A DNA stretch of 27,396 nucleotides from contig NZ_JAJOYU010000043.1 of the NCBI RefSeq assembly GCF_021290985.1, forward strand, positions 1-27,396, read 5' to 3'. Under the pieces are notes generated by a model. That model saw nothing but the letters and a program-made list of their open reading frames with translations. It searched no databases and had not been told where the DNA came from. This DNA is from Rheinheimera soli. GTDB taxonomy: Bacteria > Pseudomonadota > Gammaproteobacteria > Enterobacterales > Alteromonadaceae. Made by a program: the position numbers and the translations under genes. Within the stretch, counting starts at the first letter, position 1, and every line of letters begins with the position of its first letter. Of the stretch, positions 1 to 22,128 are shown one piece after another.

Positions 1-272
1 ATTGGACTCAGGTTCGCCCGGAGATACTGAGTAAAGAGTTCGCTGCGGTGCGTGACCTGGTACCGGAGATCGCGAAGTTAAAACCTGAGCAGCGCCCGAC
101 TTTCCACGAAATACGGGCTCTTGGTGGACACCTATATCTTCAAGCAGGCTTTACTGCAGATTACGTGCAGACACTGATGGCCCATAGCACAGCTAAGATG
201 ACAGCTCATTACACAGAAAGGCATGAGCTGAGATGGACAGCGTGTGATGGAACTATCTCATTTAGACTTTAA
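1..272 (+). CDS. int: Tyrosine recombinase / phage integrase, C-terminal part (5' end lies outside the window)
   Basis: The frame is open to the window edge (WTQVRPEILSKEFAAVRDLVPE...). The translation ...RPTFHEIRALGGHLY...TLMAHSTAKMTAHYTERH matches the C-terminal catalytic region of lambda-Int-type integrases (H-x-x-R, second His, Tyr nucleophile). Stop TAA at 270..272. Confidence 0.85.
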   Translation, partial: WTQVRPEILSKEFAAVRDLVPEIAKLKPEQRPTFHEIRALGGHLYLQAGFTADYVQTLMAHSTAKMTAHYTERHELRWTACDGTISFRL

Positions 273-324
273 AAATCACTACTTAAACTAATTTTTGCAG
301 CAATCAATACAGTACTCAGTGGCC

Positions 325-2592
325 TCAATGTTTAATGATGTTTATAATAATTTCTATATCATCATCAAAAGCGAATGTTCCCCGAAGCATAGTCTTCAAT
401 TCGAACAATACAGACAATGCATCGTCAAGCTCAGTCGTGTCACCAGAAAATTCATAATCCTCTTCCATCATTTGAAGATATGAACCACCAGGACACATCA
501 TACTCTCATAATGAAGTGCATGCTCAACCAAGCGAGAATAGAAATCAATTAAATAGCTAACGATACCAACCCCATGAAGATCTATAGCCTTTTTTATATC
601 TTTTCTATAATCTCTAAAAAGTACCGACTTACTGTCATGTATCACATAATCATTAAACAGCAGCCCTACATAGTTATATATACTTAACGAAGAGTAATCC
701 CTATCGTAGAACCCTTCGGGATGGTCCTGAAAATCATACCCAATGGAAAGGTCTATTTTGCTACAGCTGTAACCGATAATATACTGAGTCTTTGAATAAT
801 CTACTTGAATGCCGGGTTGCTCATTGCATACATTAGCAACAAACTCCAAAATAGACTCTGCGCTTTCTGGATCGATTGCCATTTTGTCTATACCATTTAA
901 AGCCAAGTCCAACAGCAAGCCTACAACGTGACTATTAGCTAATTTACAATTATCAATATAGGACATTATCGCTTCAATCATATGAATCTGGAGCCCAAAA
1001 TCCAAATTAAAAATCAAAGATGCTGGCACGTTATGAAAGCATAGATATTTAAACATGCACGTAGTGCTAATATCAAATGATGGAATAGATGCAATTTTAT
1101 TTATAACTTCCTCAGAGTCACCTAACTTGGAAAAATGTTCAATCAGCAAAATATCTCTATACGTCTCATCATAGAACTCGACAAAGCCATCAATCACCTC
1201 TAAGACGCCATGATTTTTATAAGCATCTGGCACAAATGTAAATCGACTTAGCCCAAAAATTTCGGCAAATGATTCTAAGGTAACTTTTGAAGGACCGTAT
1301 GCCATCACTTTAGCGAGATTAAGCAAAGCGGCCTTTGAATCAATCTCTTGACTAGTAGAAATGCAACTACATTTTTCATTCAACATGCGAACTAAAATCT
1401 GATATTCATTGTCAAGCTGCTTAAGTTCATAACCAGAGTTGATTAACTGGTAAAACTTCCCGACTGCATTTATAGAAGTTAATAACTGCGATGGTTCAAC
1501 CGTAGTATTGTATACCGATTTGTAATGCTGGATAACGGCACTATATGATGCCGCATCTAGTTGTGGAACTTTAATCTCCCTAAATACATTCTTAGAGTTA
1601 TTTTTGAACATCCCTATAGAATTATTTTCACCATCTGATTTTATGGTGTTAGTAAATGAGTCACTGCAACTAATTATAAACCTTACACCTGCGAGAGAAA
1701 TCATCTCTATATCTGTGATTATAGAATGCCTCTCATGAATATTAACTTCATTTAATCCATCAACAAACATTGTAATATTTCCACTAGAAATAATGGCATT
1801 AGCTATTATTTCTGGTGTACTGCCCGGCGGATTCATGAAAAGTGTAATTTGACTTTTTAAATATTGAATAACACCGTTGACTATTGATCTTGCTCTAAAA
1901 AAAATAGCAATTTCACCGCGTTCAATAGCCAAGTCAAAAGCATTGCATAAGTAGTTGGTTTTTCCAGATTGCGGAGGGCCAGAGATTAGTAATACCTTAA
2001 TATCGGGTTCTGGATCTCCGACTATGGGTATATAAAGTTCTTTGCAATGTTTTTTTGATTCGTTTAACTCACCACTTAATCGATGAATTTCAATCATCGA
2101 CAATTTTTCGCAGATACTTCCAACAAAACTACCATCATTGCTGAGTAATTTTATAGCTTCTTCTTTCGCAATGCTAAATGCAGTATCTCTGTACTGAAAT
2201 TCACCATCTAGAGCCAAACGAATATCGATATTTTTTATTTCTTTTTTCGTAAGTGAGCAATATACATATGTATTTATCGAATTAGTTATGACTACAATCG
2301 GCGCCATGTTACCTTTTAGGATTCGAGCATAGCTAACAGACTGATCAATAGACTCGGTGGAAATTTTTACGCTTGGTTTCTTAATTTCAAAAAGAATTAA
2401 ATTTATGCCATTATTAGACTTTACCAACAAATCAAAACGGCCGGCCTTGTGGATAGCGAACTCACCATGCCCAATTTGATATTTCACACTTCGTTCAAGT
2501 AAAATGTTAACTGAACTAATACCCTGAACCCGCAACCATTCATAAACAAATTTTGTTCTAACTTCATCTTCCGTTGTTATTTCGCTGCCCAT
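325..2592 (-). CDS. P-loop STAND/NACHT-like NTPase with an N-terminal PD-(D/E)xK (HsdR-N/Mrr-like) nuclease domain; candidate antiphage Avs/bNACHT-type protein
   Basis: 755-aa ORF, AT-rich. The N-terminus reads ...GRFDLLV...INLILFEIKKP...APIVVITNS..., a D...E-x-K restriction-endonuclease-like pattern (D54, E69, K71). Walker A GPPQSGKT is at nt 1957..1980. The Walker B-like MFVDGLNE at nt 1747..1770 resembles the NACHT hhhhDGhDE motif. The C-terminal region of about 450 aa is unassigned. Confidence 0.65.
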   Translation of the reverse strand: MGSEITTEDEVRTKFVYEWLRVQGISSVNILLERSVKYQIGHGEFAIHKAGRFDLLVKSNNGINLILFEIKKPSVKISTESIDQSVSYARILKGNMAPIVVITNSINTYVYCSLTKKEIKNIDIRLALDGEFQYRDTAFSIAKEEAIKLLSNDGSFVGSICEKLSMIEIHRLSGELNESKKHCKELYIPIVGDPEPDIKVLLISGPPQSGKTNYLCNAFDLAIERGEIAIFFRARSIVNGVIQYLKSQITLFMNPPGSTPEIIANAIISSGNITMFVDGLNEVNIHERHSIITDIEMISLAGVRFIISCSDSFTNTIKSDGENNSIGMFKNNSKNVFREIKVPQLDAASYSAVIQHYKSVYNTTVEPSQLLTSINAVGKFYQLINSGYELKQLDNEYQILVRMLNEKCSCISTSQEIDSKAALLNLAKVMAYGPSKVTLESFAEIFGLSRFTFVPDAYKNHGVLEVIDGFVEFYDETYRDILLIEHFSKLGDSEEVINKIASIPSFDISTTCMFKYLCFHNVPASLIFNLDFGLQIHMIEAIMSYIDNCKLANSHVVGLLLDLALNGIDKMAIDPESAESILEFVANVCNEQPGIQVDYSKTQYIIGYSCSKIDLSIGYDFQDHPEGFYDRDYSSLSIYNYVGLLFNDYVIHDSKSVLFRDYRKDIKKAIDLHGVGIVSYLIDFYSRLVEHALHYESMMCPGGSYLQMMEEDYEFSGDTTELDDALSVLFELKTMLRGTFAFDDDIEIIINIIKH

Positions 2593-2686
2593 AACTAAAG
2601 AACCTTTAATTCATATAAATTCATACAATTTAGCGGCTAATTCATAACCAAAAACCGCCAGAAGGCAATCGGCGTGTTAATAGTTA

Positions 2687-3526
2687 TTACGCTTTACTCA
2701 GATAGTGCTCACGGTGATAGCGTATAAATTTTTGTCCGCTCTTGTGTTGAGCAACTGTTTTAAGTTTTCCAGGTAAACCAATCAAGCTCAGATCATCATT
2801 AATAGAAAAGACACCATTGTCGAACATCACATGATGGTTTGGACACAGGCTTAACAGGTTATCTTCAATATCAGGGCCGTTATGTGGTTCACCTAAAGGT
2901 TGTATATGTACTGCTTCCGAGTATAGACCTGCGGAAGTCTTAATAGCTAAGCCACAGACCTGGCACTGATAACCATGCCATGATTTGACATTGATAGCTC
3001 GCTGGTAATCTCTAACAATTTTGTTTACCGAAAATTGTTTTCTCTTAGGCGTTTCATGTTCTACCAGGCTCTCGTTGTACGAATTTCCTATGGCTACTAG
3101 TCTATAACGCCAGACATAAAAACATTATTTTCCTTTGTCACACCAATAATCATCGACAAAATATAGACCGCAATATTTATAGCCCTTGAGAGGACTTAGT
3201 TCATGCTTATGCTTGAAGCCCCTTGTCACTCTAACAGGAAGGCCATCAATTTTGCTTCGTGCCAGAGCAAGGTTAACGCCTATCAACTCTTGATTGGTTA
3301 CTTGTTTACCGTTTTGCTGACCAGCAGCGCCGGTGTATATGAGCTCGTGCCCGAAGTCTTCATCATCTTCACAGTCTCCAGCTAAAACTATTGAATCAGC
3401 ACCTTCATTTTGGGAACCACTGATACCTGCTAGTGTTGGAGGGTGCACACCTGCCTTTGCTAGTGCGTCTCTGTTTTCAAATACAGCACCAAGACTTACC
3501 CCAGGAATTTCACCAAATACTCGCAT
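2687..3526 (-). pseudogene. SRA(YDG)-HNH modification-dependent (type IV) restriction endonuclease interrupted by one in-frame TAA at 3125..3127
   Basis: A single reading frame of 840 nt reads ...GYKYCGLYFVDDYWCDKGK*CFYVWRYRLVAIGN...YQCQVCG...EAVHIQPLGEPHNGPDIEDNLLSLCPNHHVMFDNG...HYLSKA*. The HNH part has no ATG/GTG/TTG until 47 codons before its end, which is why it is missing from the ORF track. Confidence 0.75.
3125..3526 (-). CDS. SRA/YDG domain ORF (133 aa), the translatable N-terminal portion of the disrupted SRA-HNH gene
   Basis: MRVFGEIPGVSLGAVFENRDALAKAGVHPPTLAGISG...GADSIVLAGDCEDDEDFGHELIYTG...LPVRVTRG...GYKYCGLYFV follows the canonical SRA/YDG pattern. A good RBS (AAGGTGATAA) precedes the ATG at 3526. 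Confidence 0.8.
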   Translation of the reverse strand: MRVFGEIPGVSLGAVFENRDALAKAGVHPPTLAGISGSQNEGADSIVLAGDCEDDEDFGHELIYTGAAGQQNGKQVTNQELIGVNLALARSKIDGLPVRVTRGFKHKHELSPLKGYKYCGLYFVDDYWCDKGK

Positions 3527-3569
3527 TTATCACCTTATGCATAACATCCGCATTTACAACAGTTTTGAA

Positions 3570-3759
3570 TAGTAAGCGGCGCTCTACTTCTAATAAAATC
3601 CGTTATCTTCGTCAGCACTTCTGTCATCGGGCAGGTTTTAGAGAAGATTATGTTCAGACACTAAAGTACAACAGCACTGCGAACATGACCGTTCGTTCTA
3701 CTGCCTGGCATACACCGGAATGTAAAGCTGTTAGTAGCTGTTTCAGATTACAAAACTAA
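3570..3759 (+). pseudogene. Decayed 3' remnant of a second integrase gene, paralogous to the one at 1..272
   Basis: The translation ...STSNKIRYLRQHFCHRAGFREDYVQTLKYNSTANMTVRS...SCFRLQN* aligns collinearly with ...PTFHEIRALGGHLYLQAGFTADYVQTLMAHSTAKMTAHY...ISFRL*. The catalytic His, His and Tyr positions are lost. The nucleotide alignment is visible by eye, and the 5' part is replaced by the SRA gene. The left boundary is approximate. Confidence 0.6.
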
Positions 3760-4103
3760 TCAAATTGACGGTTTTGGTATGAGGCTATTTCAGGCACTTC
3801 AAGGAAAATCTTGCCATTTTCAACAGTAACAACAAAAGAATCATCCCAATCACTTTCTACATCCATGTCAGAACAACCGTTATAGACGTTGTAATCAAAA
3901 TTATAACTTACAGTAAACTGACCATCACCTTCGTCTTGTACATGCTCAATGTTTAAGTTGTAGCATTCAGCACGTGGAATAATGTCAGAAAAGTTCACCG
4001 TCAAGAGCGCTAGTATTCTTTCAGCATGCGTCGATAGGATACTCTGTATCAATAAACAGGAAACACCGCCATCTTCATCTACGGTTGATATAAACTCTGT
4101 CAT
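3756..4103 (-). CDS. Hypothetical small acidic protein (115 aa), last gene of the rexAB-like cassette
   Basis: The ORF has a good RBS (AAAGGGG 6 nt upstream of the ATG at 4103) and lies 53 nt downstream of the rexB-like gene on the same strand. It is rich in Asp/Glu. I recognise no family. Confidence 0.6.
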   Translation of the reverse strand: MTEFISTVDEDGGVSCLLIQSILSTHAERILALLTVNFSDIIPRAECYNLNIEHVQDEGDGQFTVSYNFDYNVYNGCSDMDVESDWDDSFVVTVENGKIFLEVPEIASYQNRQFD

Positions 4104-4156
4104 TAAATGCCCCTTTAATTTCCCTTAAGAATGCAATATTTATTAAATACTCTCAC

Positions 4157-4579
4157 CTATGGTTGGGTTGAGCTTTTGGTGCTTATGTTTACCAGTATTA
4201 TGGTCATAAATAAGACCTGAAACAGGTTGTTTACTGTTGATCCTACAGCTAACTTCATAAATACATCACCGAAGTTATCACTAAGCGTCAGCAACGCGCA
4301 GCCGAATGTGAAAAATAGAGAAATGATCGAAAAAAAATATATCCAGTAAAAAACTGAAAAGTATCCTTTTTGGTCATATCGTCTTATCAACGAGTTGCGT
4401 CTCAAGCCAATTAAAATAGTAATAACAGCCGCTAAAAAGCCAAGCATTGTGAAAGCAAATGTTGCCGTTATAACTGCGACATTTGCTTTTTGGACAAACA
4501 ACGATAAATGGAACCCATTAAAACAATGCTTAATTAGTAGGTACAGTAGGTATAAAATTGGTCCAGGCATCAATGTCAT
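4157..4579 (-). CDS. rexB: RexB-like four-helix inner-membrane protein
   Basis: Four hydrophobic segments. The protein is collinear, from memory, with lambda RexB: MTLMPGPILY.. versus ..RIMPGVYIV.., and FTMLGFLAAVITILIGLRRNSLIRRYDQKGY versus GTMIAILIAALTFLIGSRTRRLAKIREYGY. The start was chosen by that alignment (ATG at 4579, about 140 aa). The ORF track start at 4630 is a GTG, so the start is uncertain. Confidence 0.65.
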   Translation of the reverse strand: MTLMPGPILYLLYLLIKHCFNGFHLSLFVQKANVAVITATFAFTMLGFLAAVITILIGLRRNSLIRRYDQKGYFSVFYWIYFFSIISLFFTFGCALLTLSDNFGDVFMKLAVGSTVNNLFQVLFMTIILVNISTKSSTQP

Positions 4580-5507
4580 TAAAGACAGCGATAGCTTGAG
4601 AGTTACCGTTCTCGAATCCTTCATCTGCACAATACTCGTTAATTTTCACCGCTAATGCAGCATTATCACGAAATTTTTTCTCCATTGTTTCAGCTATTTT
4701 GTTTACCTTTTTCGCATCAACGGAGTCTGATAAACCACCACTACCGACTATGTATAAGTCAGTCAATAGACTAGCAGCCTCTTCTTGCTTCGCTCTGATT
4801 ATAAGCTTGTCCACGTTTTCTTCTGGTACTTTCGCAAGAAGGTTTTGAACGGCTGGTTTAATGTTCTTTCTCAACTTTGGTATCAAAGTTATTTGTATAC
4901 CGGATACATCGTCATAATCTGTTGAACTTCCAGATAACAGATTGAAAAGATCTTGAGTGAAGGAATTATCTCTGTCCAGTTCAATGTGTGTTTTTCCAAT
5001 AAAAGACATTTCCATAGCTTTCGTTCTAGTGGCAGAAACCAAAGCTGTCCTTGGAGTCAAAGCCCAATTTGACAGTCCTATATGAGTCAGCAAAGAACCA
5101 ATATAACTCCAAAGTACGTCTTGTCTAGGAGCCAGTAAGGTAGACCCTATACCTATACAGCTTTCTTTAACTATCACATAGGAAGCAAAGCTTAAATGCT
5201 CATTCTGAGCAAGGAGTGAGTGCACCTCACTAACCGTCAGATCATCGGTCTTAATTCGGCGAATTATCTCTTTACTTCGCGTGATTAAGAATAGAAAAAC
5301 ATCACCAACATGATGAATTAAATAGACATTCTCACCTTGATGGCTAAATTGATTTTTAAAGGATGGCGCGTTTACGGCACAATAGGCCTTCAGGAATGGT
5401 CTGATATCGTGCTTATAGCGGGTGTTATCGTTAGTGTTTTGCAAACAGTAATGAAAATAGCTGACTTTCAAGATAAACCTCCATTGTTTACCGATATTGA
5501 ATACCAT
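4530..5507 (-). CDS. rexA: RexA-like phage-exclusion protein
   Basis: 325 aa, with RBS AGGAAAAT before the ATG. Similarity to lambda RexA (from memory) is collinear: VFLFLITRSKEIIRRIK...HLSFASYVIVKESCIGIGSTLLAP versus TFLFTKTNDKSLVQKIN...SLGFPSFLFVEGDTIGFARTVFGP; MSFIGKTHIEL versus MHFIGRTTVKV; IQITLIPKLRKNIK versus LDIVIKPKFKRDIK; LIIRAKQEEA versus ISLRAKDEAG. Confidence 0.65.
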   Translation of the reverse strand: MVFNIGKQWRFILKVSYFHYCLQNTNDNTRYKHDIRPFLKAYCAVNAPSFKNQFSHQGENVYLIHHVGDVFLFLITRSKEIIRRIKTDDLTVSEVHSLLAQNEHLSFASYVIVKESCIGIGSTLLAPRQDVLWSYIGSLLTHIGLSNWALTPRTALVSATRTKAMEMSFIGKTHIELDRDNSFTQDLFNLLSGSSTDYDDVSGIQITLIPKLRKNIKPAVQNLLAKVPEENVDKLIIRAKQEEAASLLTDLYIVGSGGLSDSVDAKKVNKIAETMEKKFRDNAALAVKINEYCADEGFENGNSQAIAVFNDIDAWTNFIPTVPTN

Positions 5508-5612: not shown

Positions 5613-5689
5613 TGGTGCGTCCTAGTGGACTCGAACCACCGACCCCCACCATGTCAAGGTGGTGCTCTAACCAACTGAGCTAAGGACGC
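5613..5689 (-). tRNA. tRNA-Val (anticodon GAC), with encoded CCA
   Basis: The reverse complement reads GCGTCCTTAGCTCAGTTGGTTAGAGCACCACCTTGACATGGTGGGGGTCGGTGGTTCGAGTCCACTAGGACGCACCA. It folds as a cloverleaf with anticodon loop CTTGACA and is nearly identical to enterobacterial tRNA-Val(GAC) as I remember it. Confidence 0.95.
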
Positions 5690-7701: not shown

Positions 7702-8781
7702 TCAGGCCACTACTTGCCAACGACCGCCTTTGGCTGGCCCTGTGCGAAGTAACTTGCCTTCAGCTTTTAATTTTGCCAATTGTTTTTCTATAGCTCTGGA
7801 GCTTAACCCCAGTTCATCTGCGATGGTTTTAGCACTTAATCTGTTGTCTTTTTTCAGTTTCTTTAAAATTTGATCTTCGGTTTTATACCAGGGACCTGGC
7901 GTTTTTGTTTTCACTTTTTGTGTTTGCAGTTGCACAAATTGTGACAAATCCACCAAAGGCTGATCCGGCAAATTTGCCGTCTGACTAAGACTATTGAACT
8001 CGGCCTGCTGCAACTGCAGCTGCTCTAATTCAACGCTCAGTGTTTCATTGATGCTACGCAACATAAACAAAATAAAAGCCGTTGCATCGTATTTAGGCAC
8101 GGACTGACGTAAAGCTTTTTGGTAGTCGCGTGTTTTATCTTTAAGCACAGCAGTAAAGGGCAAATAAGCAAAAAAAGACTGCCATTGAGTTAAAACTAAA
8201 TGCTGCCATAAGCGACAAAGACGGCCATTGCCATCGGAGAACGGATGTATAAAGGCCAGTTGATAATGCATTAAACAGGAAATCAGTAACGGATGTACTT
8301 GTTCATGCTGCAGTTTCCCCAACAGCTCATCCACCAAAGCGGACACTTTGGCCGGTGCTGGTGGCATATGCACCAGTTTGTGGCCCTCATACACCCCAGC
8401 GCCCTGCTTTCTGTACTGTCCGGCATCAGTGGATACTGAACTCATAAACTCTGCATGAGCCTTGCGTAAATCGGCACTTTGATAAGGATTAAACTGATCC
8501 AGCCTTTGATACAAAGCCAGAGCATTTTGCGCTTGCTGGATATCCTGCACCAAGGCTACTACGCGTTTACCAGCCGCAAGCTCCTGCAACTGCAGCAATG
8601 ACAGGGAATTGTGGTCTAAAGCCAGACTAGCCTGCAAAGCTTTGTTCTGTAATTCCAGGCGTTGTTGCAATGACAACGAAGTCAGAAACACCGACCACTG
8701 GGCCAGTTGCTGTTCAATCTGCTGAATTAACTCCGGGATTTCCGGATTCGGCTGATAAAAGGTCTGGTATCTATCCATCAC
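7702..8781 (-). CDS. Fic family protein (probable AMPylase) with a C-terminal winged-helix DNA-binding domain
   Basis: Fic motif HPFSDGNGRLCR. The C-terminal segment LSAKTIADELGLSSRAIEKQLAKLKAEGKL is HTH-like. Confidence 0.85.
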   Translation of the reverse strand: MMDRYQTFYQPNPEIPELIQQIEQQLAQWSVFLTSLSLQQRLELQNKALQASLALDHNSLSLLQLQELAAGKRVVALVQDIQQAQNALALYQRLDQFNPYQSADLRKAHAEFMSSVSTDAGQYRKQGAGVYEGHKLVHMPPAPAKVSALVDELLGKLQHEQVHPLLISCLMHYQLAFIHPFSDGNGRLCRLWQHLVLTQWQSFFAYLPFTAVLKDKTRDYQKALRQSVPKYDATAFILFMLRSINETLSVELEQLQLQQAEFNSLSQTANLPDQPLVDLSQFVQLQTQKVKTKTPGPWYKTEDQILKKLKKDNRLSAKTIADELGLSSRAIEKQLAKLKAEGKLLRTGPAKGGRWQVVA

Positions 8782-9023
8782 ACAACCACCTGCATTTATT
8801 CAATGTAGTGAACTTATTGACTAGCTAAGACTAATAGAGGTTCACTGAAAAAACAAAGCCTTAGCGATATTTGAGCAATTTTTCTAAATTTTAAGAAATA
8901 AAACTGCAAAAACTGAATAGAACAGCTTGCTTTCGTTATCCGGCTCAATAACTATTGAGTCAGACTATATAAGTAGCTTTAACCCATCTGACAGTGGTTA
9001 AACAGGATTAAGCAGGAGTTTTT

Positions 9024-12000
9024 GTGCAAGTAAAGCGTTACTCTACTTCTGAGCTTACGCTGCGATTTTGGGCAGCCATTGCGTTGTTATTGACCTTCAG
9101 CGTAATTTTTGTTGCTTATGTCTACGCAGAAAAACGTATTGATGCAGCCAATGATCAACGGGTGTATTCGTTGAAAATCATTGGTGAGTTACGTCAGTCT
9201 TCCGATGACTTAACCCGTATGGTGCGAAGCTACATCGCAACGGGAGAACATCGCTACAAAAACCACTTCAATGAAATTATTGCGATACGAAATGGCCAAG
9301 CGGCCAGGCCGGTTAATTACCATCAGGTGTACTGGGATTTAGTTGGCGAAGAAAACCAAAGACCCCGCCCCGCAGGCTCTCGTGTAGCCTTATTGGATTT
9401 AATGAAAGCCACAGGCTTTACCGATGCAGAACTGTCTGCACTACAGGAAGCCAAAATTCAGTCCGATCTGTTAGCTGTAACAGAGCAAAAAGCCATGCAG
9501 CTGCTGGAAAGACCAGAGCTTGATCCCGCACAGAAAGAAAAAAACAAGCAACAGGCACTGCTGAGCGTTTTTGATTTGAACTACCACAATACCAAAATGG
9601 CCATTATGCAACCCATAGCCACTGTCTATAGCATGGTAGACCAGCGCACAGCGGATGAAGTGGAAGATGCGATGTTTAATGCTCTGGTGATGCGTATTCT
9701 GTTTATTCTGTCTGGTTTACTGCTGTTTTATTCACTTTGGGATATTAAAAGAGTACACAACAGTATTCTTGGAGCTTCTGTCAGCCATTTGTACGACCAA
9801 ATCAAAGCCATGGGTCGGGGTGAAGTGCTGCACGATGCAGAACTGCGTAAAGCTAAGCCTGGCAGTATCATGAGCTGGCTGGGCGCAACCCAGCTTCGGC
9901 TGAATAGTTCTATTCGGGAACGTCAGACCCTGATCCAGACGCTGCAGCAAAAAGAGCAATACCAACGCACCTTGATTGACAGTATTCCTTTTGTGGTCTG
10001 GTTAAAGGACATTCACAGCCGCTATCTGGAAGTCAACCAGAAGTTTGCTGAGCAGTTTCAGCACCGTACTACCAGTCAGTTGGTGGGAAAAACAGATGCA
10101 GAGTTATTTGATGCTCAACGTGCCTTAAATCATGTAGTCCACGATAAACAAGTGCTGACATCAGGTCAGCCACAGGTGATCCGGTCACAACATAAAACTG
10201 AAACAGAGCAGCATTGGTTTGAAACTTACAAAGCCCCAGTGTTGGTTGATGATGAATATGTGGGTACTGTTGGTTTATCCCGGGATATTACGCTGGAGCA
10301 CACAGCAGATAACAAATTACGGCTGTCAGCCAGCGTGTTCACCCATGCCCGCGAAGGCATTATGATCACAGATCCTTTAGGTGTGATGATTGATGTGAAC
10401 CAGGCATTTACCGAGATCACAGGCTACAGTGCCAAACAAGCCATAGGCTGTACCCCACGTTTATTGCAGTCTGAGCATCAGGATGAACTTGCTTTTAGCT
10501 CGATGTGGCAAAGCTTGCAGCAACAAGGCTTCTGGTCTGGTGAGTTATGGAGTCGTAAGGCGTCAGGCGAAGATTTTTTCCAAAGCCTGACTTTAAGTGC
10601 AGTACTGGATGATAAAGGCCAGTTACAACATTATGTCGGGCTGTTTTCTGACATTACCAACCAGTATCAGCAGCAACAACACCTTGAAAAAATTGCGCTA
10701 TATGACTCAATGACCGGTTTACCAAACCGCAGTGCTTTAGCCCAACAGCTGCAGCTACTCATGAAAAAATCAACTGATGAGCAGATGCTTGCTATTGCTT
10801 ATCTTGATTTAGATGGCTTTAAAGAAATTAACGACCGCCACGGTCACGAAACCGGCGACCAGTTTTTAATTGCCTTGTCGGAACGCTTAGGAGCTCAGTT
10901 GGAAGAAACTGAGTTACTGGCCCGTATCGGCGGTGATGAATTTGTGGTGTTATTGCCCGCATTAAAGGACAAAAAGGCTGGTCTGGCCAAAATTCAGCAA
11001 CTGCTGGATGTGGTAGCTAAACCGCTGAAAATAGACGAATGGATGTTGTCAGTGTCTGCCAGTATAGGCCTGACTTTTTACCCTCAGACGGATGCCACTG
11101 AAGCAGAACAACTGATACGTCAGGCCGATCATGCCATGTATCAGGCTAAGCAGGATGGTAAAAATCGCTGCCATCTGTTTGATACCGACTACGCCCGAAG
11201 TTTACGCGGCCACCAGGAAACCATAGTAGAAATCAGACAAGGCCTGGCGCTTAAACAGTTCAGGTTGTTTTATCAGCCCAAAGTCAATATGCATACAGGT
11301 GAAGTGATAGGTGCTGAAGCCCTGATCCGTTGGTTGCATCCACAAAAAGGTATGGTCGCTCCTGCTTTATTTTTACCTGCAATAGAACAACACAGTCTGG
11401 GGGTCGAGCTGGGTTATTGGGTGATTGAAGAAGCTTTACGTCAATTGGCTGAATGGCAACGTCAGGGTATGACTATCCCTGTGAGTGTCAATATTTCAGC
11501 CTATCACTTACAGCAGCTGGATTTTGTTAATCGCCTGCAATTGTTACTGCATTTTTATTCAGACGTGCCGGCCTCTTTGTTGCAACTGGAAATTCTGGAA
11601 ACCAGTGCGCTGAATGACTTAACCCATGTACAGGCCGTGATGCAGGCCTGTATTCGCAGCGGCGTCAGTTTTGCGCTGGATGATTTTGGCACTGGTTATT
11701 CGTCGTTAACCTACTTAAAACGTTTACCAGCAACAGTGCTGAAAATAGACCAGAGTTTTGTTCGCGATATGCTGGTCGACCCGGACGATTTAGCTATTCT
11801 CAAAGGCATTATTGTATTAGCCAATGAGTTTAAACGTGAAATTGTCGCTGAAGGGGTAGAAACCACAGAGCATGGCGAAATGCTGCTGCAATTAGGTTGT
11901 ACTCATGCTCAGGGGTACGGCATAGCCCGTCCTATGCCCGCCGAGCAATTTATGCCATGGAAAAAAGCCTGGCTGCCACCTGATGTCTGGGCTGCAGCAC

Positions 12001-12074
12001 TGGTGGGATCAGGTATTCATCCTTCAGGCTCCGATAAAACACTGACCACACACTCTCAGCACAGAGCCGTTTAA
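9024..12074 (+). CDS. Membrane sensor with PAS domains, GGDEF diguanylate cyclase and EAL phosphodiesterase domains
   Basis: GTG start. The N-terminal sensor region is flanked by transmembrane segments and looks CHASE3-like (RSYIATGEHRY). Two PAS-like segments follow, then RIGGDEF, EALIRW, DDFGTGYSSL, KIDQSF and EGVET. Both catalytic signatures appear intact. Confidence 0.9.
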   Translation: MQVKRYSTSELTLRFWAAIALLLTFSVIFVAYVYAEKRIDAANDQRVYSLKIIGELRQSSDDLTRMVRSYIATGEHRYKNHFNEIIAIRNGQAARPVNYHQVYWDLVGEENQRPRPAGSRVALLDLMKATGFTDAELSALQEAKIQSDLLAVTEQKAMQLLERPELDPAQKEKNKQQALLSVFDLNYHNTKMAIMQPIATVYSMVDQRTADEVEDAMFNALVMRILFILSGLLLFYSLWDIKRVHNSILGASVSHLYDQIKAMGRGEVLHDAELRKAKPGSIMSWLGATQLRLNSSIRERQTLIQTLQQKEQYQRTLIDSIPFVVWLKDIHSRYLEVNQKFAEQFQHRTTSQLVGKTDAELFDAQRALNHVVHDKQVLTSGQPQVIRSQHKTETEQHWFETYKAPVLVDDEYVGTVGLSRDITLEHTADNKLRLSASVFTHAREGIMITDPLGVMIDVNQAFTEITGYSAKQAIGCTPRLLQSEHQDELAFSSMWQSLQQQGFWSGELWSRKASGEDFFQSLTLSAVLDDKGQLQHYVGLFSDITNQYQQQQHLEKIALYDSMTGLPNRSALAQQLQLLMKKSTDEQMLAIAYLDLDGFKEINDRHGHETGDQFLIALSERLGAQLEETELLARIGGDEFVVLLPALKDKKAGLAKIQQLLDVVAKPLKIDEWMLSVSASIGLTFYPQTDATEAEQLIRQADHAMYQAKQDGKNRCHLFDTDYARSLRGHQETIVEIRQGLALKQFRLFYQPKVNMHTGEVIGAEALIRWLHPQKGMVAPALFLPAIEQHSLGVELGYWVIEEALRQLAEWQRQGMTIPVSVNISAYHLQQLDFVNRLQLLLHFYSDVPASLLQLEILETSALNDLTHVQAVMQACIRSGVSFALDDFGTGYSSLTYLKRLPATVLKIDQSFVRDMLVDPDDLAILKGIIVLANEFKREIVAEGVETTEHGEMLLQLGCTHAQGYGIARPMPAEQFMPWKKAWLPPDVWAAALVGSGIHPSGSDKTLTTHSQHRAV

Positions 12075-13343
12075 ACCAGCGGCATCTGGTCGTGCAAAAA
12101 AAGCCACAGCCAAAGCCACATCCTGAGGTAAGCCTGCCTGACTCAGCGAGTTTAACCGCCGTCCCACTTCACGTGGGATGGCCGGCATGGCGGCTGTCAT
12201 TTGCGTTTCAATAAAACCTGGGGCTATGGCGTTAAAGGTAATGCCTCTGTGGTCCTGCATCGCCATATACTGGCAATACCCGACTAAAGCGGCTTTTGAG
12301 CTGGCATAGTTAGTTTGGCCTTTTTGCCCTGCCAGACCATTCATCGACGACAACAGCAGCACCCTGCCGTCCGATTGGATCAATTGCTGTTCCAGTAGCA
12401 GTGAATTAATACGCTGCACAGCACGCAGATTAACCTCCAGAGTTTGAGTCCACTGAGCCTCTGTCATTCTGTGGAATAATTTATCGCGGGTAATACCAGC
12501 GTTGTGTACCAGAATATCCAGTATCAGCCCGCGCTCTGTTAACCATTGCTGCAGTTGCTGAGCGCTGTTGCTTTGACTGATATCCAGCGCCAGACTTTTG
12601 CCTTGCAACTGCAGCATCAAGGCGTTAAGCGCATCTTCGGCTTGTGGAATGTCCAGCCCAATGACGGTAGCGCCCTGCTCTGTCAGCGTTGTGGCTATGG
12701 CAGCACCAATGCCACGGGCCGCACCTGTCACCAAAGCAACTTTCCCCTGAAGTGGTTTTTGCCATGGACTGAGTTCAGCTATTTTTGCTGCACGTACGGG
12801 CAACACCTGGCCTGTGACATAAGCTGATGCTTTGGAGAGAAAAAACTCTGCCGCAGGCAACAGACTCTGCTGTACGCCCTGGTGCAAAGACAATAAATTT
12901 GCTGTACTGCCAAAACGCCCCAGCTCTTTGGCTATAGAGCGGGTAAAGCCTGATAAAGCGGCAGCTGCGGCTGCAGCATCTGAGTTGCTGGTATCAGCTA
13001 AAGCCCGCGCCAGGATCAATACACGGCCGTTCTTCGCCAAAGCAGGTAAAACACTGTGTAACTCTTGCCAGACTAAATCCAGCTCTGCGGTGCTTTGCAG
13101 CTCTGTACCATCAAAAATAATGGCCTGAAATGGCCCGCCAGAAGCTTCATCAAAGCGAATATCCGGCAGATGGCTTAAATGCTGACGCAGCAACAGACTG
13201 TGCTGAGATGTCTTTCCGCACAACAATACTGAACCGCTCAAACAGGAGCTTTCACCTTGTGGTCGTTGCAAAGGCGTGGCTTGTGGTACACCACACCAGC
13301 GGCCTAGTGCAGAATCTGCTAAAGCTGTAACCCAGGATGTCAT
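12024..13343 (-). CDS. Two-domain short-chain dehydrogenase, 3-oxoacyl-ACP reductase (FabG)-like
   Basis: The C-terminal SDR domain has VALVTGAARGIGAAIA, NAGI and YASSK. The N-terminal domain of about 190 aa is as seen in high-molecular-weight FabG-type proteins. Confidence 0.8.
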   Translation of the reverse strand: MTSWVTALADSALGRWCGVPQATPLQRPQGESSCLSGSVLLCGKTSQHSLLLRQHLSHLPDIRFDEASGGPFQAIIFDGTELQSTAELDLVWQELHSVLPALAKNGRVLILARALADTSNSDAAAAAAALSGFTRSIAKELGRFGSTANLLSLHQGVQQSLLPAAEFFLSKASAYVTGQVLPVRAAKIAELSPWQKPLQGKVALVTGAARGIGAAIATTLTEQGATVIGLDIPQAEDALNALMLQLQGKSLALDISQSNSAQQLQQWLTERGLILDILVHNAGITRDKLFHRMTEAQWTQTLEVNLRAVQRINSLLLEQQLIQSDGRVLLLSSMNGLAGQKGQTNYASSKAALVGYCQYMAMQDHRGITFNAIAPGFIETQMTAAMPAIPREVGRRLNSLSQAGLPQDVALAVAFFARPDAAGLNGSVLRVCGQCFIGA

Positions 13344-13852
13344 GACTAGTCTCTGTCGGCTTAAAAACTTCAGTTATCTTAACGGCATACAGGCAGTGAT
13401 ACCAGCTCTGGTTACTCACAGACACAGAGCCAGTAGATGAGAAGTAAGGCGAAAATATGTTTAGCGGGGAGCCGACGTCTGTGCCCTGCTCTTTCTGCTG
13501 GATTTGTTCGTTCGGCCCATCGCAACTCTCCGACCACTCAAGCAATCAGCCCCTAGTGCAGCGGGCAAACTTCCCGGATATATAAACTAATTTTTTGTAT
13601 TTGCACTCTTTAGGTGCTGAACATTTATGCAGCATAAACAGTGACAGGCAATTCCAAACCTCAGGTTATATCTGAGTCTCTGATTTACAACAAAAAACGA
13701 CCTCAAAACCTTCCCAAGAAAACGCGTGAAGATTGCAGCGACCCAGGTTAAAAAACAACGATAGCATTGGCATCCGGTACTTTGCCATCCCTTAGTGACG
13801 CACCACTTTGAACGACAACGCACAATATCTGTGCAAATCTTCAATTTATATG

Positions 13853-13881
13853 TTGAAAAAACGTTCATCCTGCATTATAAA
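13853..13881 (+). promoter_or_regulatory. Candidate sigma70 promoter of the susC-like operon
   Basis: TTGAAA (13853..13858), an exact 17-nt spacer, then TATAAA (13876..13881), about 60 nt upstream of the ATG at 13940. Confidence 0.5.
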
Positions 13882-13883
13882 CA

Positions 13884-13897
13884 AAAAGACAACGTTG
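13884..13897. promoter_or_regulatory. Candidate LacI-family operator (palindromic core CAACGTTG)
   Basis: AAAAGACAACGTTG lies directly downstream of the candidate -10 box. An identical 14-mer recurs at 24569..24582, upstream of the LacI gene. The CG-centred palindrome ACAACGTTGT (13889..13898) fits the LacI-family operator style. Confidence 0.45.
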
Positions 13898-13939
13898 TTT
13901 ATTGTCGATAAAAATAACATTACATCAACAGGACAAGAC

Positions 13940-16915
13940 ATGAAAACATTCTCCATGCATCCGTTGGCGAGAGGCATTCATATGCTTCTGACAAGTAGCA
14001 CTTTGTTACTCCCCACTTTCGTTTTGGCAGAGCAACAAACAGAGCCGCCTATACAGGAAGAACAGAAAAAAAATGAAGAAAAAGAACAACAGGATATCGA
14101 AATAATTCAGGTTTCTTATGGCTATGCCTCAGTTGAGAAAAAAGACCTGACGGGCGCTATAGCAACAGTAAAGCTTGAAGATATTTCCGACATGCCAGCA
14201 GGTAATATCATGCAAAATTTACAAGGTCGGGTACCAGGCCTGCAAATAACCACCAGTGGCAACCCGAACTCAGCGGCCACTGTTCGTATTCGTGGCCAGG
14301 GTTTGGGTCCTTTGGGAAACAATGACCCTCTGTACGTGATTGATGGTATTCCCACTAAATCAGGTCTGCACGAGATCAACAGCAATGATATAGCGGACGT
14401 ACAGGTACTGCGTGACGCTGCCGCGGCCAGTATTTATGGTTCACGTGCCGGCAATGGCGTCATTGTGGTCACGACAAAAAAGGGTGAAGAAGGTCTTGAT
14501 TTTAACTTTCGTTTTAATCAGACCCGTGAAAGTTATAATTACGATCTACAACCCCTGAATACTGAACAACGAGGCGCAGCCGTATGGCGTGCCGCAGTAA
14601 ATGACAAAACCAATCCGAATACAGCAAGCCCCTTGTATAACTTTGACTGGAATGGCGATTACGATAATCCACAACTCAATAGCGTAAACCTTCCTGCGTT
14701 TACAGATCCCGACAATCTGCAACGCCCCGCCGACACCCGTTGGTTTGATTTAGTCACCCGCGAAGCTGATGTGCGGGATTTCAATGCGTCTTTATCTGGA
14801 GGAGATGACAATAGCCGGTATTACAGTTCAATTGGTTATTACAACTCAGACGGCATAGTGGATGGTTCTAACTTTGAACGTATGGCCTTTCGGCTTAACT
14901 CTGAACATGAACTGATTAAAGACCGCTTAAAAGTAGGCCAAACTTTTCTGCTGACTAATCAGGTTGGCAACCTGATTAATGACTTAGCAGGACAAATTCT
15001 GGGTTTATCCATTGAGCAGCAATCCATAGTCCCGGTTTTCAACGATGAAGGTGGCTGGGGAGGCCCTGTGCCTGGGATCACTGACAGGGATAACCCGGTC
15101 AGGATCATTGAACAAAACCGTGACAATAACCACCGTTTTAACAAGGTGATGCCTGGCTTTTTTGCCGAATACAGTCCTTTAGAGGATCTTAAACTCCGAA
15201 GCAGTTTAAGTGTCGACTACAGCCAGTTCTACTTCCGTAATTTTACCCGTAGTTTTAAAGCCGGAACTCTGACCTTTGGCGACAGGCTGACGGTCGATGA
15301 CAACTGGAGCCGCAGCATCATCGCCAGTAATACCGCCAGCTACAAAGTGGTATTGAATGAGAAACACAGCTTCAATTTGCTGGCTGGTATTGAAAAAATC
15401 AACTTTAAAAGCGAATCTGCCCGCGCCATAGGGTCTGGTTTTGCCTCCAACGATCGTGATTTTGCGTTCTTATCTCAGGCTACCCGGGATGTACGGGTGG
15501 AAGGTGATGGCGACAGCTGGGCACTGGACTCTCAGTTTGCCCGTGCCGACTATAACTACGATGATCGTTATCTTGCATCAGCCACAGTGCGACGTGATGG
15601 TTCATCCCGGTTTGGCGAAAACAATAAATACGGCACCTTTCCGGCCTTTTCTGCAGGCTGGGTGCTGTCCAACGAAGAGTTTTTTAATCTCGCCTATATT
15701 TCCAACCTGAAACTACGGCTGAGCTGGGGTGAAACCGGTAATCAGGAGATTCCAGGCAATGCCACCGCAACCACTTATATCCCTCGTTACGCCACTCAGT
15801 CTTTGTTTACCAATCAACAAGACGAAGGCACAGCTTATGACATAACAGGTGCCAATGGAGGTACTTTGCCTTCAGGTTTTGTACGTGCTCAAACGGGTAA
15901 CCCTGATCTGAAATGGGAAACATCAACACAAAGCAACATAGGTCTTGATATTGACCTGTTTTCCAACACTGTCTATGCAAGCTTCGATTGGTATCAGAAA
16001 GAAACAACGGACATTCTTACACTGACCCGCCCTGTCGCCACTTTAGGTGAAGGAGCACAAAAATGGGTAAACGGTGGCACCATCGAAAATAATGGCTTTG
16101 AAATGATCTTAGGTTATCAGGACTGGCTAAGTTTCGATGGCTGGGACGATCTCAAAGTGGACGCATCCTTTAACTTGTCCAAATCCAGAAATAAGGTTAC
16201 AGCCTTACCGCAAGACGTGATCAACAGCTTTGGTGGCAACGGCCAGGATAAAACCATTCTTGGTCGTTCCATCAACTCTGTATACGGTTATGTGGCCGAA
16301 GGATTGTTTCAAAGCCAAACCGAAGTAGATGAACATGCAACTCAGGCGGGGGCAGCTCCGGGGCGGATACGCTGGGCAGATCTGGATGGCAATGGCGTGA
16401 TCAACGAAAACGATCAGGACTTTTTTGCTACTACAGATCCTGATTTTCTCTATGGCTTGAATCTGACACTGAACTACAGAGACTGGGACTTCAATATGTT
16501 CTGGCAAGGTGTGAAAGGTGGCCAAATCCGTAACAACTGGCGCCTCTTTACCGATTTCACCTCGCTGAATATTGGCTCTAACTATGGATCAAGAGTATTG
16601 GACGCCTGGACTTTGCAAAACACCGACTCCACTGTACCAGCCCTGACGTTAGTTGATACCAATGGCGAAGGCCGTCAGTCCAGTTTTTTCTGGGAAGAAG
16701 GCAGTTATCTGAAGCTCAGAAATATTTCCGTTGGTTACAGACCTAATCTTGATCTGCTGGATAAATTTGGCATTCAGGAAGCCCGGATTTACCTGCAAGC
16801 CTCTAATTTACTCACTCTGACACCGGGTGGAACCTTAAGCGAAGATCCGGAAACACCCAATGAAGTCTTCCCGGTGCCACGCCGTATCACTCTTGGCCTT
16901 GAAATGACCTTTTAA
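13940..16915 (+). CDS. SusC/RagA-type TonB-dependent outer-membrane transporter
   Basis: Start chosen at MKTFSMHPL... (signal peptide, AGGA RBS) rather than the TTG at 13808. The plug region LTGAIATVKLEDI...LQGRVPGLQI...VRIRG...PLYVIDGIP...DIADVQVLRDAAAASIYGSRAGNGVIVVTTKKG is the SusC/RagA signature. The C-terminal residue is Phe. Confidence 0.85.
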   Translation: MKTFSMHPLARGIHMLLTSSTLLLPTFVLAEQQTEPPIQEEQKKNEEKEQQDIEIIQVSYGYASVEKKDLTGAIATVKLEDISDMPAGNIMQNLQGRVPGLQITTSGNPNSAATVRIRGQGLGPLGNNDPLYVIDGIPTKSGLHEINSNDIADVQVLRDAAAASIYGSRAGNGVIVVTTKKGEEGLDFNFRFNQTRESYNYDLQPLNTEQRGAAVWRAAVNDKTNPNTASPLYNFDWNGDYDNPQLNSVNLPAFTDPDNLQRPADTRWFDLVTREADVRDFNASLSGGDDNSRYYSSIGYYNSDGIVDGSNFERMAFRLNSEHELIKDRLKVGQTFLLTNQVGNLINDLAGQILGLSIEQQSIVPVFNDEGGWGGPVPGITDRDNPVRIIEQNRDNNHRFNKVMPGFFAEYSPLEDLKLRSSLSVDYSQFYFRNFTRSFKAGTLTFGDRLTVDDNWSRSIIASNTASYKVVLNEKHSFNLLAGIEKINFKSESARAIGSGFASNDRDFAFLSQATRDVRVEGDGDSWALDSQFARADYNYDDRYLASATVRRDGSSRFGENNKYGTFPAFSAGWVLSNEEFFNLAYISNLKLRLSWGETGNQEIPGNATATTYIPRYATQSLFTNQQDEGTAYDITGANGGTLPSGFVRAQTGNPDLKWETSTQSNIGLDIDLFSNTVYASFDWYQKETTDILTLTRPVATLGEGAQKWVNGGTIENNGFEMILGYQDWLSFDGWDDLKVDASFNLSKSRNKVTALPQDVINSFGGNGQDKTILGRSINSVYGYVAEGLFQSQTEVDEHATQAGAAPGRIRWADLDGNGVINENDQDFFATTDPDFLYGLNLTLNYRDWDFNMFWQGVKGGQIRNNWRLFTDFTSLNIGSNYGSRVLDAWTLQNTDSTVPALTLVDTNGEGRQSSFFWEEGSYLKLRNISVGYRPNLDLLDKFGIQEARIYLQASNLLTLTPGGTLSEDPETPNEVFPVPRRITLGLEMTF

Positions 16916-16938
16916 CAGCAATTTCAGCACATCAACGA

Positions 16939-18666: not shown

Positions 18667-18673
18667 CCAGCAC

Positions 18674-18706
18674 CAGTCAGAGCTGGCCTGGTGTCCGCTC
18701 TGACTG
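18674..18706 (+). other. Strong intercistronic hairpin between the susD-like and MFS genes
   Basis: Perfect 10-bp inverted repeat CAGTCAGAGC / GCTCTGACTG with a 13-nt loop, 8 nt after the susD-like stop. No T-tract follows, so it is not a canonical intrinsic terminator. Confidence 0.4.
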
Positions 18707-18727
18707 TTGTCACTAAAGAAGAAAGAT

Positions 18728-20044: not shown

Positions 20045-20047
20045 CCT

Positions 20048-22102: not shown

Positions 22103-22128
22103 CCTAAACCCTGAAGGGGAAAGAGCAG

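Follow-up and report, generated by a model that had tools for sequence, protein, structure and literature searches.

The window analyzed here (the whole 27,396-nt contig NZ_JAJOYU010000043.1 of Rheinheimera soli, assembly GCF_021290985.1) carries near one end a gene, at positions 325–2592, whose product joins a PD-(D/E)xK nuclease of the HsdR N-terminal type to a STAND nucleoside triphosphatase (NTPase) and to a helical C-terminal domain specific to its own small family. By analogy with studied nuclease-STAND proteins, we read it with moderate confidence as an autonomous, single-polypeptide (NLR-like) antiphage sensor-effector, which would act by abortive infection or restriction. The family is always carried as mobile defense cargo, in a tRNA island, in P2-like and Mu-like prophages, and in clusters for DNA phosphorothioation (dnd).

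The gene and its nuclease domain

The gene is one intact open reading frame (ORF) on the minus strand, with an ATG start and 755 codons (stop codon at 325–327). A first-pass annotation, made from the sequence letters without database searches, had delimited the same ORF and gave no strand. The product is 100% identical to WP_233081663.1 of R. soli, and the start codon is assigned correctly, because the alignment with all homologues begins at residue 1 or 2; an AAAGG ribosome-binding site lies ~10 nt ahead of the ATG. A 755-aa ORF with conserved homologues, in DNA of 35% GC, is far beyond chance.

The RefSeq name ([quoted passage not shown]) describes only residues 1–120. There, Pfam HSDR_N_2 matches residues 8–119 (E = 2.2e-10, 41 bits vs. 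a cut-off of 25), with D54, E69, and K71 within GRFDLL...LILFEIK. HsdR nuclease domains have as their catalytic signature D...ExK combined with QxxxY (as in EcoR124I HsdR), and this catalytic set is complete, in agreement with the HsdR-N-like PD-(D/E)xK nuclease first proposed. Further along are a Walker A motif (G205-PPQSGKT-212, with K211 inside) and a Walker B motif (MFVD278-GLN281-E282). The alignment places D54/E69/K71, GPPQSGKT with K211, and MFVDGLNE at the residues first given for them, and they are invariant in 13 family members; D54, E69, K71, Q84, Y88, K211, D278, and E282 are invariant also in 55 distant members of the superfamily.

The STAND module

The AlphaFold2 (AF2) model, built from the family alignment, has a predicted local distance difference test (pLDDT) of 85 and a predicted TM-score (pTM) of 0.72. 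Together with the Pfam match and the motifs, it upholds the predicted order of nuclease, P-loop, and helical domains. In a Foldseek search of the PDB, the best matches are STAND/NLR proteins: 6mfv (STAND-TPR, 4e-7), second the AVAST5 filament (8e-6), and then SAMD9, NLRC4, NOD2, and NLRP3. The top STAND matches have a probability of 1.00 and E-values from 4e-7 to 2e-4, and the alignments to NLRC4, NOD2, NLRP3, and 6mfv span 500–700 columns. Against viral models, the structural match that ranks first is a phage protein with an NLR-like annotation (1e-6). A winged-helix motif, F473-Y-D-E-T-Y-R479-D480-I-L-L, is conserved across the superfamily. The Walker B sequence reads D-G-L-N-E, whereas the NACHT form is D-G-h-D-E.

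Pfam NACHT (PF05729) does not match the window protein even at E ≤ 10, and direct searches of PDB sequences and PHROGs match the nuclease domain alone (the PHROGs matches are confined to that region). In contrast to the window protein, its relatives do reach such profiles: among 55 sampled, HSDR_N_2 matches 55/55, NPHP3_N 31/55, NACHT 13/55 (best 3.8e-7), and nSTAND1/3/5 6–8, the STAND-type matches lying mostly below curated cut-offs. Several relatives match the NTPase region of PADLOC Avs2, with E down to 1.7e-12, and the best NTPase match of the superfamily profile in the PDB is the nucleotide-binding domain (NBD) of NLRC4 (E = 2.6e-4). Since the window protein has no STAND-type profile match of its own, the STAND assignment is made through structure and transitive homology. 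On the model, it is a STAND NTPase with NACHT-like features, without demonstrable membership of Pfam NACHT or of a named Avs type. The NACHT-like class of the first-pass annotation thus stands as a STAND module by fold and transitive homology, and does not stand as a NACHT or STAND profile match of the protein; profile searches give the expected match for the nuclease, none for STAND or NACHT, and none in PADLOC.

The same annotation had named a KAP or transposition ATPase as the class that would overturn its proposal. Such an identity is rejected: AAA+ proteins, ORC/Cdc6, DnaA, and MuB rank lower in the Foldseek list (MuB at rank 42, E 3.7e-3), KAP_NTPase matches 1/55 relatives (4e-3), and IstB matches 2/55 weakly.

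The C-terminal domain

The last 450 aa or so had been left unmatched at first. Some 145 of them (residues ~346–490) belong to the helical and winged-helix domains of the STAND module; for the last ~265 aa the description holds, and no TPR, WD40, or named sensor can be assigned to them. Modeled alone, residues 491–755 reach pLDDT 88 and pTM 0.83. In Foldseek, the domain has no structural match in the PDB at E < 0.001; the best one (E 0.047, TM 0.32) belongs to a non-significant, generic α-solenoid likeness to designed or consensus TPR, armadillo repeats, and MalT domain III. A hidden Markov model (HMM) of the domain recognizes the 755–780 aa family alone among 171 retrieved proteins. A word-index search with the domain gives no matches, but it misses the family's own members too and is uninformative on the uniqueness of the domain. 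The C-terminal domain is the least conserved part of the protein (mean pairwise identity 0.36 vs. 0.54 for the nuclease).

The family and its superfamily

With the protein as query, a word-index search finds only 15 homologues among 5.8 billion clusters, of 722–780 aa or fragments, annotated as HSDR_N_2 only. An exhaustive profile search of 1.84 billion representatives retrieves 1214 clusters at E < 1e-3, with 285 below 1e-30; the full-length 755–780 aa family comprises ~10 clusters at 50% identity among these representatives. The other superfamily proteins are 820–1050 aa long, share residues 1–480, and then diverge. They fall into two motif groups, one with the P-loop PQxGKT, Walker B DGWNE, and winged helix IDFYYxRERD-(F/Y)-x-IA (820–920 aa), and the other with a canonical GxSGxGKT and DAIDE or DGLDE (930–1050 aa). 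Judged by these motifs, the window family appears to be a short offshoot of the PQxGKT/DGWNE group. Among the superfamily proteins P0024–P0163, some have C-terminal HEAT repeats or a MarR domain; none has a full-length PADLOC match, and the only matches are partial ones to the Avs2 NTPase together with weak ones to nuclease or PDC domains.

In a neighbor-joining tree, the members coupled to dndE are basal and 25–40% identical to each other and to the window protein, which itself lies in a derived clade mixing prophage, island, and dnd contexts. Searches of other collections add little. Deposited phage genomes give no match; plasmids give two distant relatives, of which the Massilia one was examined and is truncated by an insertion sequence (IS) element; in E. 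coli genomes, the tRNA is the sole match; a first metagenome scan with the family alignment gives no matches; and a scan of the genome collection gives one 2.6-kb contig of a metagenome-assembled genome.

Mobile-element contexts of the homologues

Eleven distinct loci have informative flanks. P2-like prophages in Vibrio rotiferianus and in an IMG/VR viral contig carry the gene between cI and int, where it starts at the cI stop codon. In Aeromonas veronii (LR732798.1, locus L001), it lies between ogr and gpA of a ~13-kb P2-derived element; its place beside gpA corresponds to that of tin/old in P2. In the same element, Septu (PtuA 6e-149, PtuB 8e-82) occupies the cI-int slot. Because the cI-int slot holds either, the STAND gene and Septu are cargos that can replace each other at a single hotspot. 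A Mu-like prophage carries the STAND gene as a moron on the opposite strand, flanked by the protease and Mu-F genes, and two other loci are small islands.

In the L001 element (8700–22274), ogr, gpA, CP76, cro, cI, and int are retained, structural genes are absent, and two defense cargos are present; the element is either a prophage that has decayed or one of a satellite-like type. A. allosaccharophila (L004) has only the STAND gene at this same site of the chromosome. In GCA_029350075.1 (L009), a 454-aa protein free of Pfam and PADLOC matches (8635–9999) ends 1 nt before the start of the STAND gene, the pair lying within an island with Zot-like and DUF3693 genes; the 454-aa protein may be a lineage-specific partner.

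No partner gene is conserved upstream or downstream across the loci examined, and the system is therefore taken as a one-gene system. The candidate single-gene antiphage role first suggested for the protein gains support from these contexts, with homologues in prophage hotspots and defense islands.

Linkage to dnd clusters

At 5/11 informative loci, representing perhaps two independent arrangements, the gene lies between dndBCDE and dndFGH. In L007, L011 (also L016 and L017), and L012, it follows dndE by 2–10 bp on the same strand, with dndH-G-F converging from the other side; in L005 and L006, it is the final gene of the operon on the dndF-G-H side and is oriented toward dndE. A local tblastn search with the Dnd proteins of L012 detects dndBCDE and dndFGH in exactly the five dnd-linked loci and nowhere else; there is no dnd within 10 kb in L001, L002, L004, L009, and L013. 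The linkage is far above chance, because dndBCD are present in only 568/31,478 genomes (Tang et al. 2024, PMC11662687). It emerged from the homologue loci, the first-pass annotation having made no mention of it.

The slot between dndE and dndH looks like an accessory-gene hotspot inside dnd clusters. Its cargo varies, with HATPase_c_3 and Methyltransf_35 in L007 (12362–14631) and a DndI-like GmrSD protein in L012 (10727–12529), and Salmonella dndI occupies the slot between dndBCDE and dndFGH (PMC11662687). In L005 (1440–4054) and L006 (7324–9944), two conserved genes stand between dndH and the STAND gene, the first for a protein of 556–558 aa with a DpdB/ParB-like N-terminus (5e-11) and the second for a 314-aa protein with a weak Cas9-HNH-like match; the pair may be a split DndI-like NTPase-plus-HNH module. 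A 2024 reappraisal of Dnd neighborhoods lists HKD, HNH, restriction endonuclease (REase), URI, HEPN, and PIN nucleases, and no REase-STAND protein (PMC10853773); in the literature, we found no description of a dnd linkage for the REase-STAND family.

Orthologues with ~50% identity are found next to dnd as well as in prophages devoid of dnd, which argues for the autonomy of the protein. The C-terminal domains of the dnd-linked P0002 and P0003 are 47% identical to that of the window protein, the same value as for the whole proteins.

Proposed mechanism and alternative explanations

By analogy with Avs3/Avs4 and bNACHT25, the NTPase module would hold the resting monomer closed with the nuclease off. 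The C-terminal solenoid would read an infection cue, the likeliest being a protein of the phage or a host factor that the phage has altered, and the cue would lead to nucleotide-dependent opening and oligomerization. The oligomers could then bring nuclease domains together to cut DNA (that of the phage and probably that of the host), and the infection would be halted. The family would move among hotspots (the tRNA island, the cI-int and ogr-gpA positions of P2-like elements, the Mu-like moron position, and the dndBCDE-dndFGH slot), and the window copy would work without dnd genes.

Several points weigh against such an autonomous STAND sensor. Trigger, oligomerization, and cleavage are all inferred by analogy, and we found in the literature no experimental study of any family member. 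The window protein itself has no match in the NACHT, AAA, STAND, Avs, NCBIfam, and PADLOC models; the NACHT winged-helix histidine (equivalent to H443 of NLRC4) is absent from the family and from the 114 relatives inspected; and a sensor-1 arginine was not found by eye. The 265-aa presumed sensor exceeds the other parts in variability only by a modest margin (0.36 vs. 0.41–0.54), a weak signature of an arms race. Lastly, 5/11 informative loci are dnd-linked, and at three of them the gene is apparently co-transcribed with dndBCDE, which could mean a mechanism coupled to phosphorothioation.

The protein would in that case be a restriction partner comparable to DndI or SspE, though differing from them in fold: it would inspect DNA, be switched off or released by the marks of DndABCDE, and cut unmodified invading DNA. 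The window copy would then either rely on dnd or ssp genes located at another site of the Rheinheimera genome or stand as an orphan. We consider this unlikely. The position of the gene directly after dndE, or at the close of the dndFGH-side operon, fits such a partner, as do the frequency of the linkage, the basal place of the dndE-coupled clade, and the constant occurrence of dnd-linked copies in the slot of Salmonella DndI (PMC11662687); nucleases directly after dnd modification genes have moreover been proposed as true restriction components (PMC10853773). However, dnd is missing from the window and from the surroundings of the five other loci named above, and temperate phages carry the gene, where cutting of unmodified DNA would kill both the phage and a host devoid of phosphorothioates. 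Every dnd-linked locus already has DndFGH (and L012 also GmrSD), so that a further restriction enzyme is not needed. The protein has no sulfur-binding or DUF262 domain, the dndE-dndH slot holds varied cargo, and the C-termini are equally conserved with and without dnd.

The same operonic coupling to dndBCDE could be that of a guard, or back-up suicide effector, which would sense failure of Dnd, its inhibition by a phage, or an anti-Dnd protein, and unleash the nuclease; the stand-alone copies would be escaped versions keeping a general phage cue. Dnd-linked nucleases have been proposed as back-up suicide effectors by the Aravind group (PMC10853773), STAND proteins typically sense proteins, and the tree would fit a family that arose linked to dnd and was mobilized afterwards. 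The proposal does not account for the cue of the copies away from dnd, and the 47% C-terminal identity between P0002/P0003 and the window protein argues instead for one shared cue independent of Dnd; we hold a guard to be improbable. A broader proposal is that the family began as the fifth gene of dndBCDE operons, functionally coupled to phosphorothioation as its basal clade would still be, and later escaped to prophages and tRNA islands. This history is tentative and rather doubtful. If it were true, either the sulfur mark would be read as "self" or the Dnd machinery would be guarded against phage inhibitors, and the protein would be a further, structurally unrelated phosphorothioate restriction partner beside DndFGH, DndI, SspE/SspFGH, and PbeABCD.

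Outside defense, the protein could be an ATPase-nuclease for replication, resolution, transposition targeting, or post-segregational addiction of its element. It is always on mobile DNA beside integrases and replication genes (gpA, cI), and ORC/Cdc6, DnaA, and MuB are among the lower-ranked structural matches. But the elements are unrelated, the gene sits at cargo and not core positions where it can be exchanged with Septu, immune STAND proteins are the top structural matches, and KAP and IstB matches are rare; a role of this kind is most improbable. It is equally hard to credit that the window copy is what remains, silent or in decay, of a degraded island, as the frameshifted SRA-HNH gene upstream, the integrase remnant at ~3560–3759, and the lack of a recognizable sigma-70-like promoter might suggest: the ORF is full-length and keeps all residues that are invariant in the family, it is preceded by a ribosome-binding site, and the promoter scan is weak evidence. 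An autonomous sensor-effector is thus the explanation that we retain.

The island in the Rheinheimera window

The GC content is 0.34–0.41 over positions 1–5500 and 0.44–0.52 elsewhere in the window, with the step at a tRNA-Val gene (Table 1). The first-pass annotation was right to see an island of foreign composition there, and right also about the adjacent defense genes, which are RexA and RexB homologues and an SRA-HNH gene. Going away from the tRNA, the order is RexA, RexB, a 115-aa ORF, an integrase remnant, SRA-HNH, a hairpin, the STAND gene, and the 3′ end of an integrase gene; the remainder of the window consists of housekeeping genes.

Table 1. Coordinates of the STAND gene, its domains, and the neighboring features of the island
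Feature	Position in window	Strand	Basis
Whole gene: HsdR_N-type nuclease / STAND NTPase (assigned by model) / family-specific helical C-terminus	325..2592	-	ORF, RefSeq identity
Residues 1–120, PD-(D/E)xK nuclease of HsdR N-terminal type; D54, E69, K71, QxxxY (Q84, Y88)	2233..2592	-	Pfam, invariance, α/β fold in model
Residues 121–194, helical linker and pre-P-loop segment; conserved K181/C183/Y187	2011..2232	-	Alignment, AF2 model
Residues 195–345, P-loop nucleotide-binding domain, Walker A/B	1558..2010	-	Alignment, AF2 model, Foldseek, superfamily profile
Residues 346–435, helical domain, and 436–490, winged-helix domain, of the STAND module	1123..1557	-	AF2 secondary structure, Foldseek
Residues 491–755, all-α (13–14 helices), putative sensor, specific to the 755–780 aa family	328..1122	-	Stand-alone model, Foldseek, HMM
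98-bp upstream region: terminator-like hairpin (2653–2670) after the SRA-HNH gene, then AAAGG ribosome-binding site	2593..2690	-	
SRA-HNH modification-dependent endonuclease gene, frameshift-split near 3125–3130	2691..3526	-	SAD_SRA E = 3.4e-36; HNH_2 E = 3.4e-11, other frame
RexA (4530–5507) and RexB (4157–4630) homologues, abortive-infection pair	4157..5507	-	E = 1.4e-54 (RexA), 3e-8 (RexB)
tRNA-Val(GAC), island boundary, GC step-up	5613..5689	-	
Tyrosine integrase gene, 3′ end, cut by contig end; marks the far island side	3..272	+	Phage_integrase E = 1.7e-6

A simple scan of the 98-bp upstream region, which is weak evidence, does not find a sigma-70-like promoter; the STAND gene is probably driven by its own promoter. 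The SRA-HNH gene is TagI-like and has its frameshift in an A/T run: the SRA part is the ORF 3125–3526, and the HNH part (FYVWRYRL...CPNHHVMFDNG...) continues in another frame to 2691. It is either a pseudogene or the product of a sequencing error. SRA-HNH nucleases often adjoin dnd operons; in the window, no dnd genes are found by annotation or by tblastn with DndB-H and the GmrSD protein, and hsdM and hsdS are not found either. The RexA (325 aa) and RexB (157 aa) homologues of the lambda proteins stand directly beside tRNA-Val in a non-prophage island, and, because the called ORFs overlap by ~100 nt, the true start of RexB is probably further downstream than called.

A degenerate C-terminal integrase remnant at ~3560–3759 on the plus strand, RAGFREDYVQTL..., is homologous to the integrase piece at the contig end. 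Because each integrase piece lies on the tRNA-distal side of a block of cargo, a tandem accretion of two integrative elements at tRNA-Val is suggested. Repeats of at least 10 nt of the tRNA-Val 3′ end do not occur within the window part of the island, the other end of which lies beyond the contig. Between rexB and the remnant is an acidic 115-aa ORF (3756–4103, minus strand) with no Pfam match and a weak match to phrog_13663 (8e-5, function unknown). Just outside the low-GC island lies a gene (7702–8781, minus strand) for a 359-aa Fic/DOC protein with a C-terminal helix–turn–helix, a possible toxin or regulator.

Significance

Nuclease-STAND proteins such as Avs and bNACHT are bacterial counterparts of the NLR immune receptors, and the cues that they respond to are the question of the field. 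The present family is among the smallest of them, and its ~265-aa putative sensor, which has no known relative, would make it a tractable minimal NLR-like receptor. PADLOC-DB 2.0.0, NCBIfam, PHROGs, and Pfam NACHT miss the family, so that annotation overlooks both it and the HsdR_N-STAND superfamily of ~1200 clusters. The dnd link raises the question of whether NLR-like sensors are enlisted by phosphorothioation systems, be it as partners in restriction or as guards; if it means only that defense genes cluster, the family is a solid but ordinary new one.

Comparison with known systems

The one-protein nuclease-STAND sensor is of a well-known kind; the 755–780 aa family is uncharacterized and rare. 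With the HsdR subunit of Type I restriction-modification it has in common the HSDR_N_2/HSDR_N nuclease with D...ExK and QxxxY. It is not a fragment of HsdR: there is no SF2 translocase (ResIII/Helicase_C) in the protein and there are no HsdM/HsdS neighbors. The NBD, helical-domain, and winged-helix fold is that of solved STAND proteins (6MFV, NLRC4, NOD2, NLRP3, and SAMD9), whereas the effector and sensor domains differ and the identity is 10–13%; the TM-scores are low (0.2–0.33) because the central module alone superposes.

DndI, of the IscS-DndBCDE-DndI system (Tang et al. 2024, PMC11662687), is likewise a single protein with NTPase and nuclease in the same slot, and it is able to act as a defense module of its own (PMC11662687). 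But DndI combines a ParB-like DUF262 NTPase with an HNH nickase, instead of the P-loop STAND module and PD-(D/E)xK nuclease of the window protein, for which Pfam shows HSDR_N_2 only, with no DndF/G/H, sulfur-binding, or DUF262 domain. An identity with DndI is rejected, as DndI is DUF262-HNH and a DndI-like GmrSD protein accompanies the STAND protein in L012.

The Avs/AVAST proteins (Gao et al. 2020, 2022; Lee et al. 2026 preprint) are also single-gene STAND NTPases with an N-terminal nuclease, and they sense phage proteins. The window protein has no PADLOC Avs match, and the likeness of its relatives spans ~150 NTPase positions of Avs2. As the first-pass annotation noted, it is far shorter than a typical Avs: its 755 aa are about half of the ~1500-position Avs2 models, with a 265-aa solenoid in place of the long TPR sensor. 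The survey of Lee et al. (2026) counts 589 STAND clades and lists pfam13588 among the STAND-associated domains; WP_233081663.1 was not found in the part of its tables that was searched.

There is a close likeness in architecture to bNACHT25 and bNACHT32 (clade 6; Kibby et al. 2023; PMC12169576), in which an Mrr-like PD-(D/E)xK DNase is likewise followed in one polypeptide by a STAND NTPase and by a C-terminus that is short and all-helical instead of built from long repeats; it is a likeness judged by architecture alone, and no dnd linkage is reported for bNACHT25. In contrast to bNACHT25, the window protein falls below the Pfam NACHT threshold, has FYDETYRD without the histidine, and has an unusual Walker A motif, PPQSGKT. 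In bNACHT25, the short helical C-terminal domain is NCH1, defense needs the nuclease aspartate (D48A), and mutation of the winged-helix histidine hyperactivates the protein (PMC12169576).

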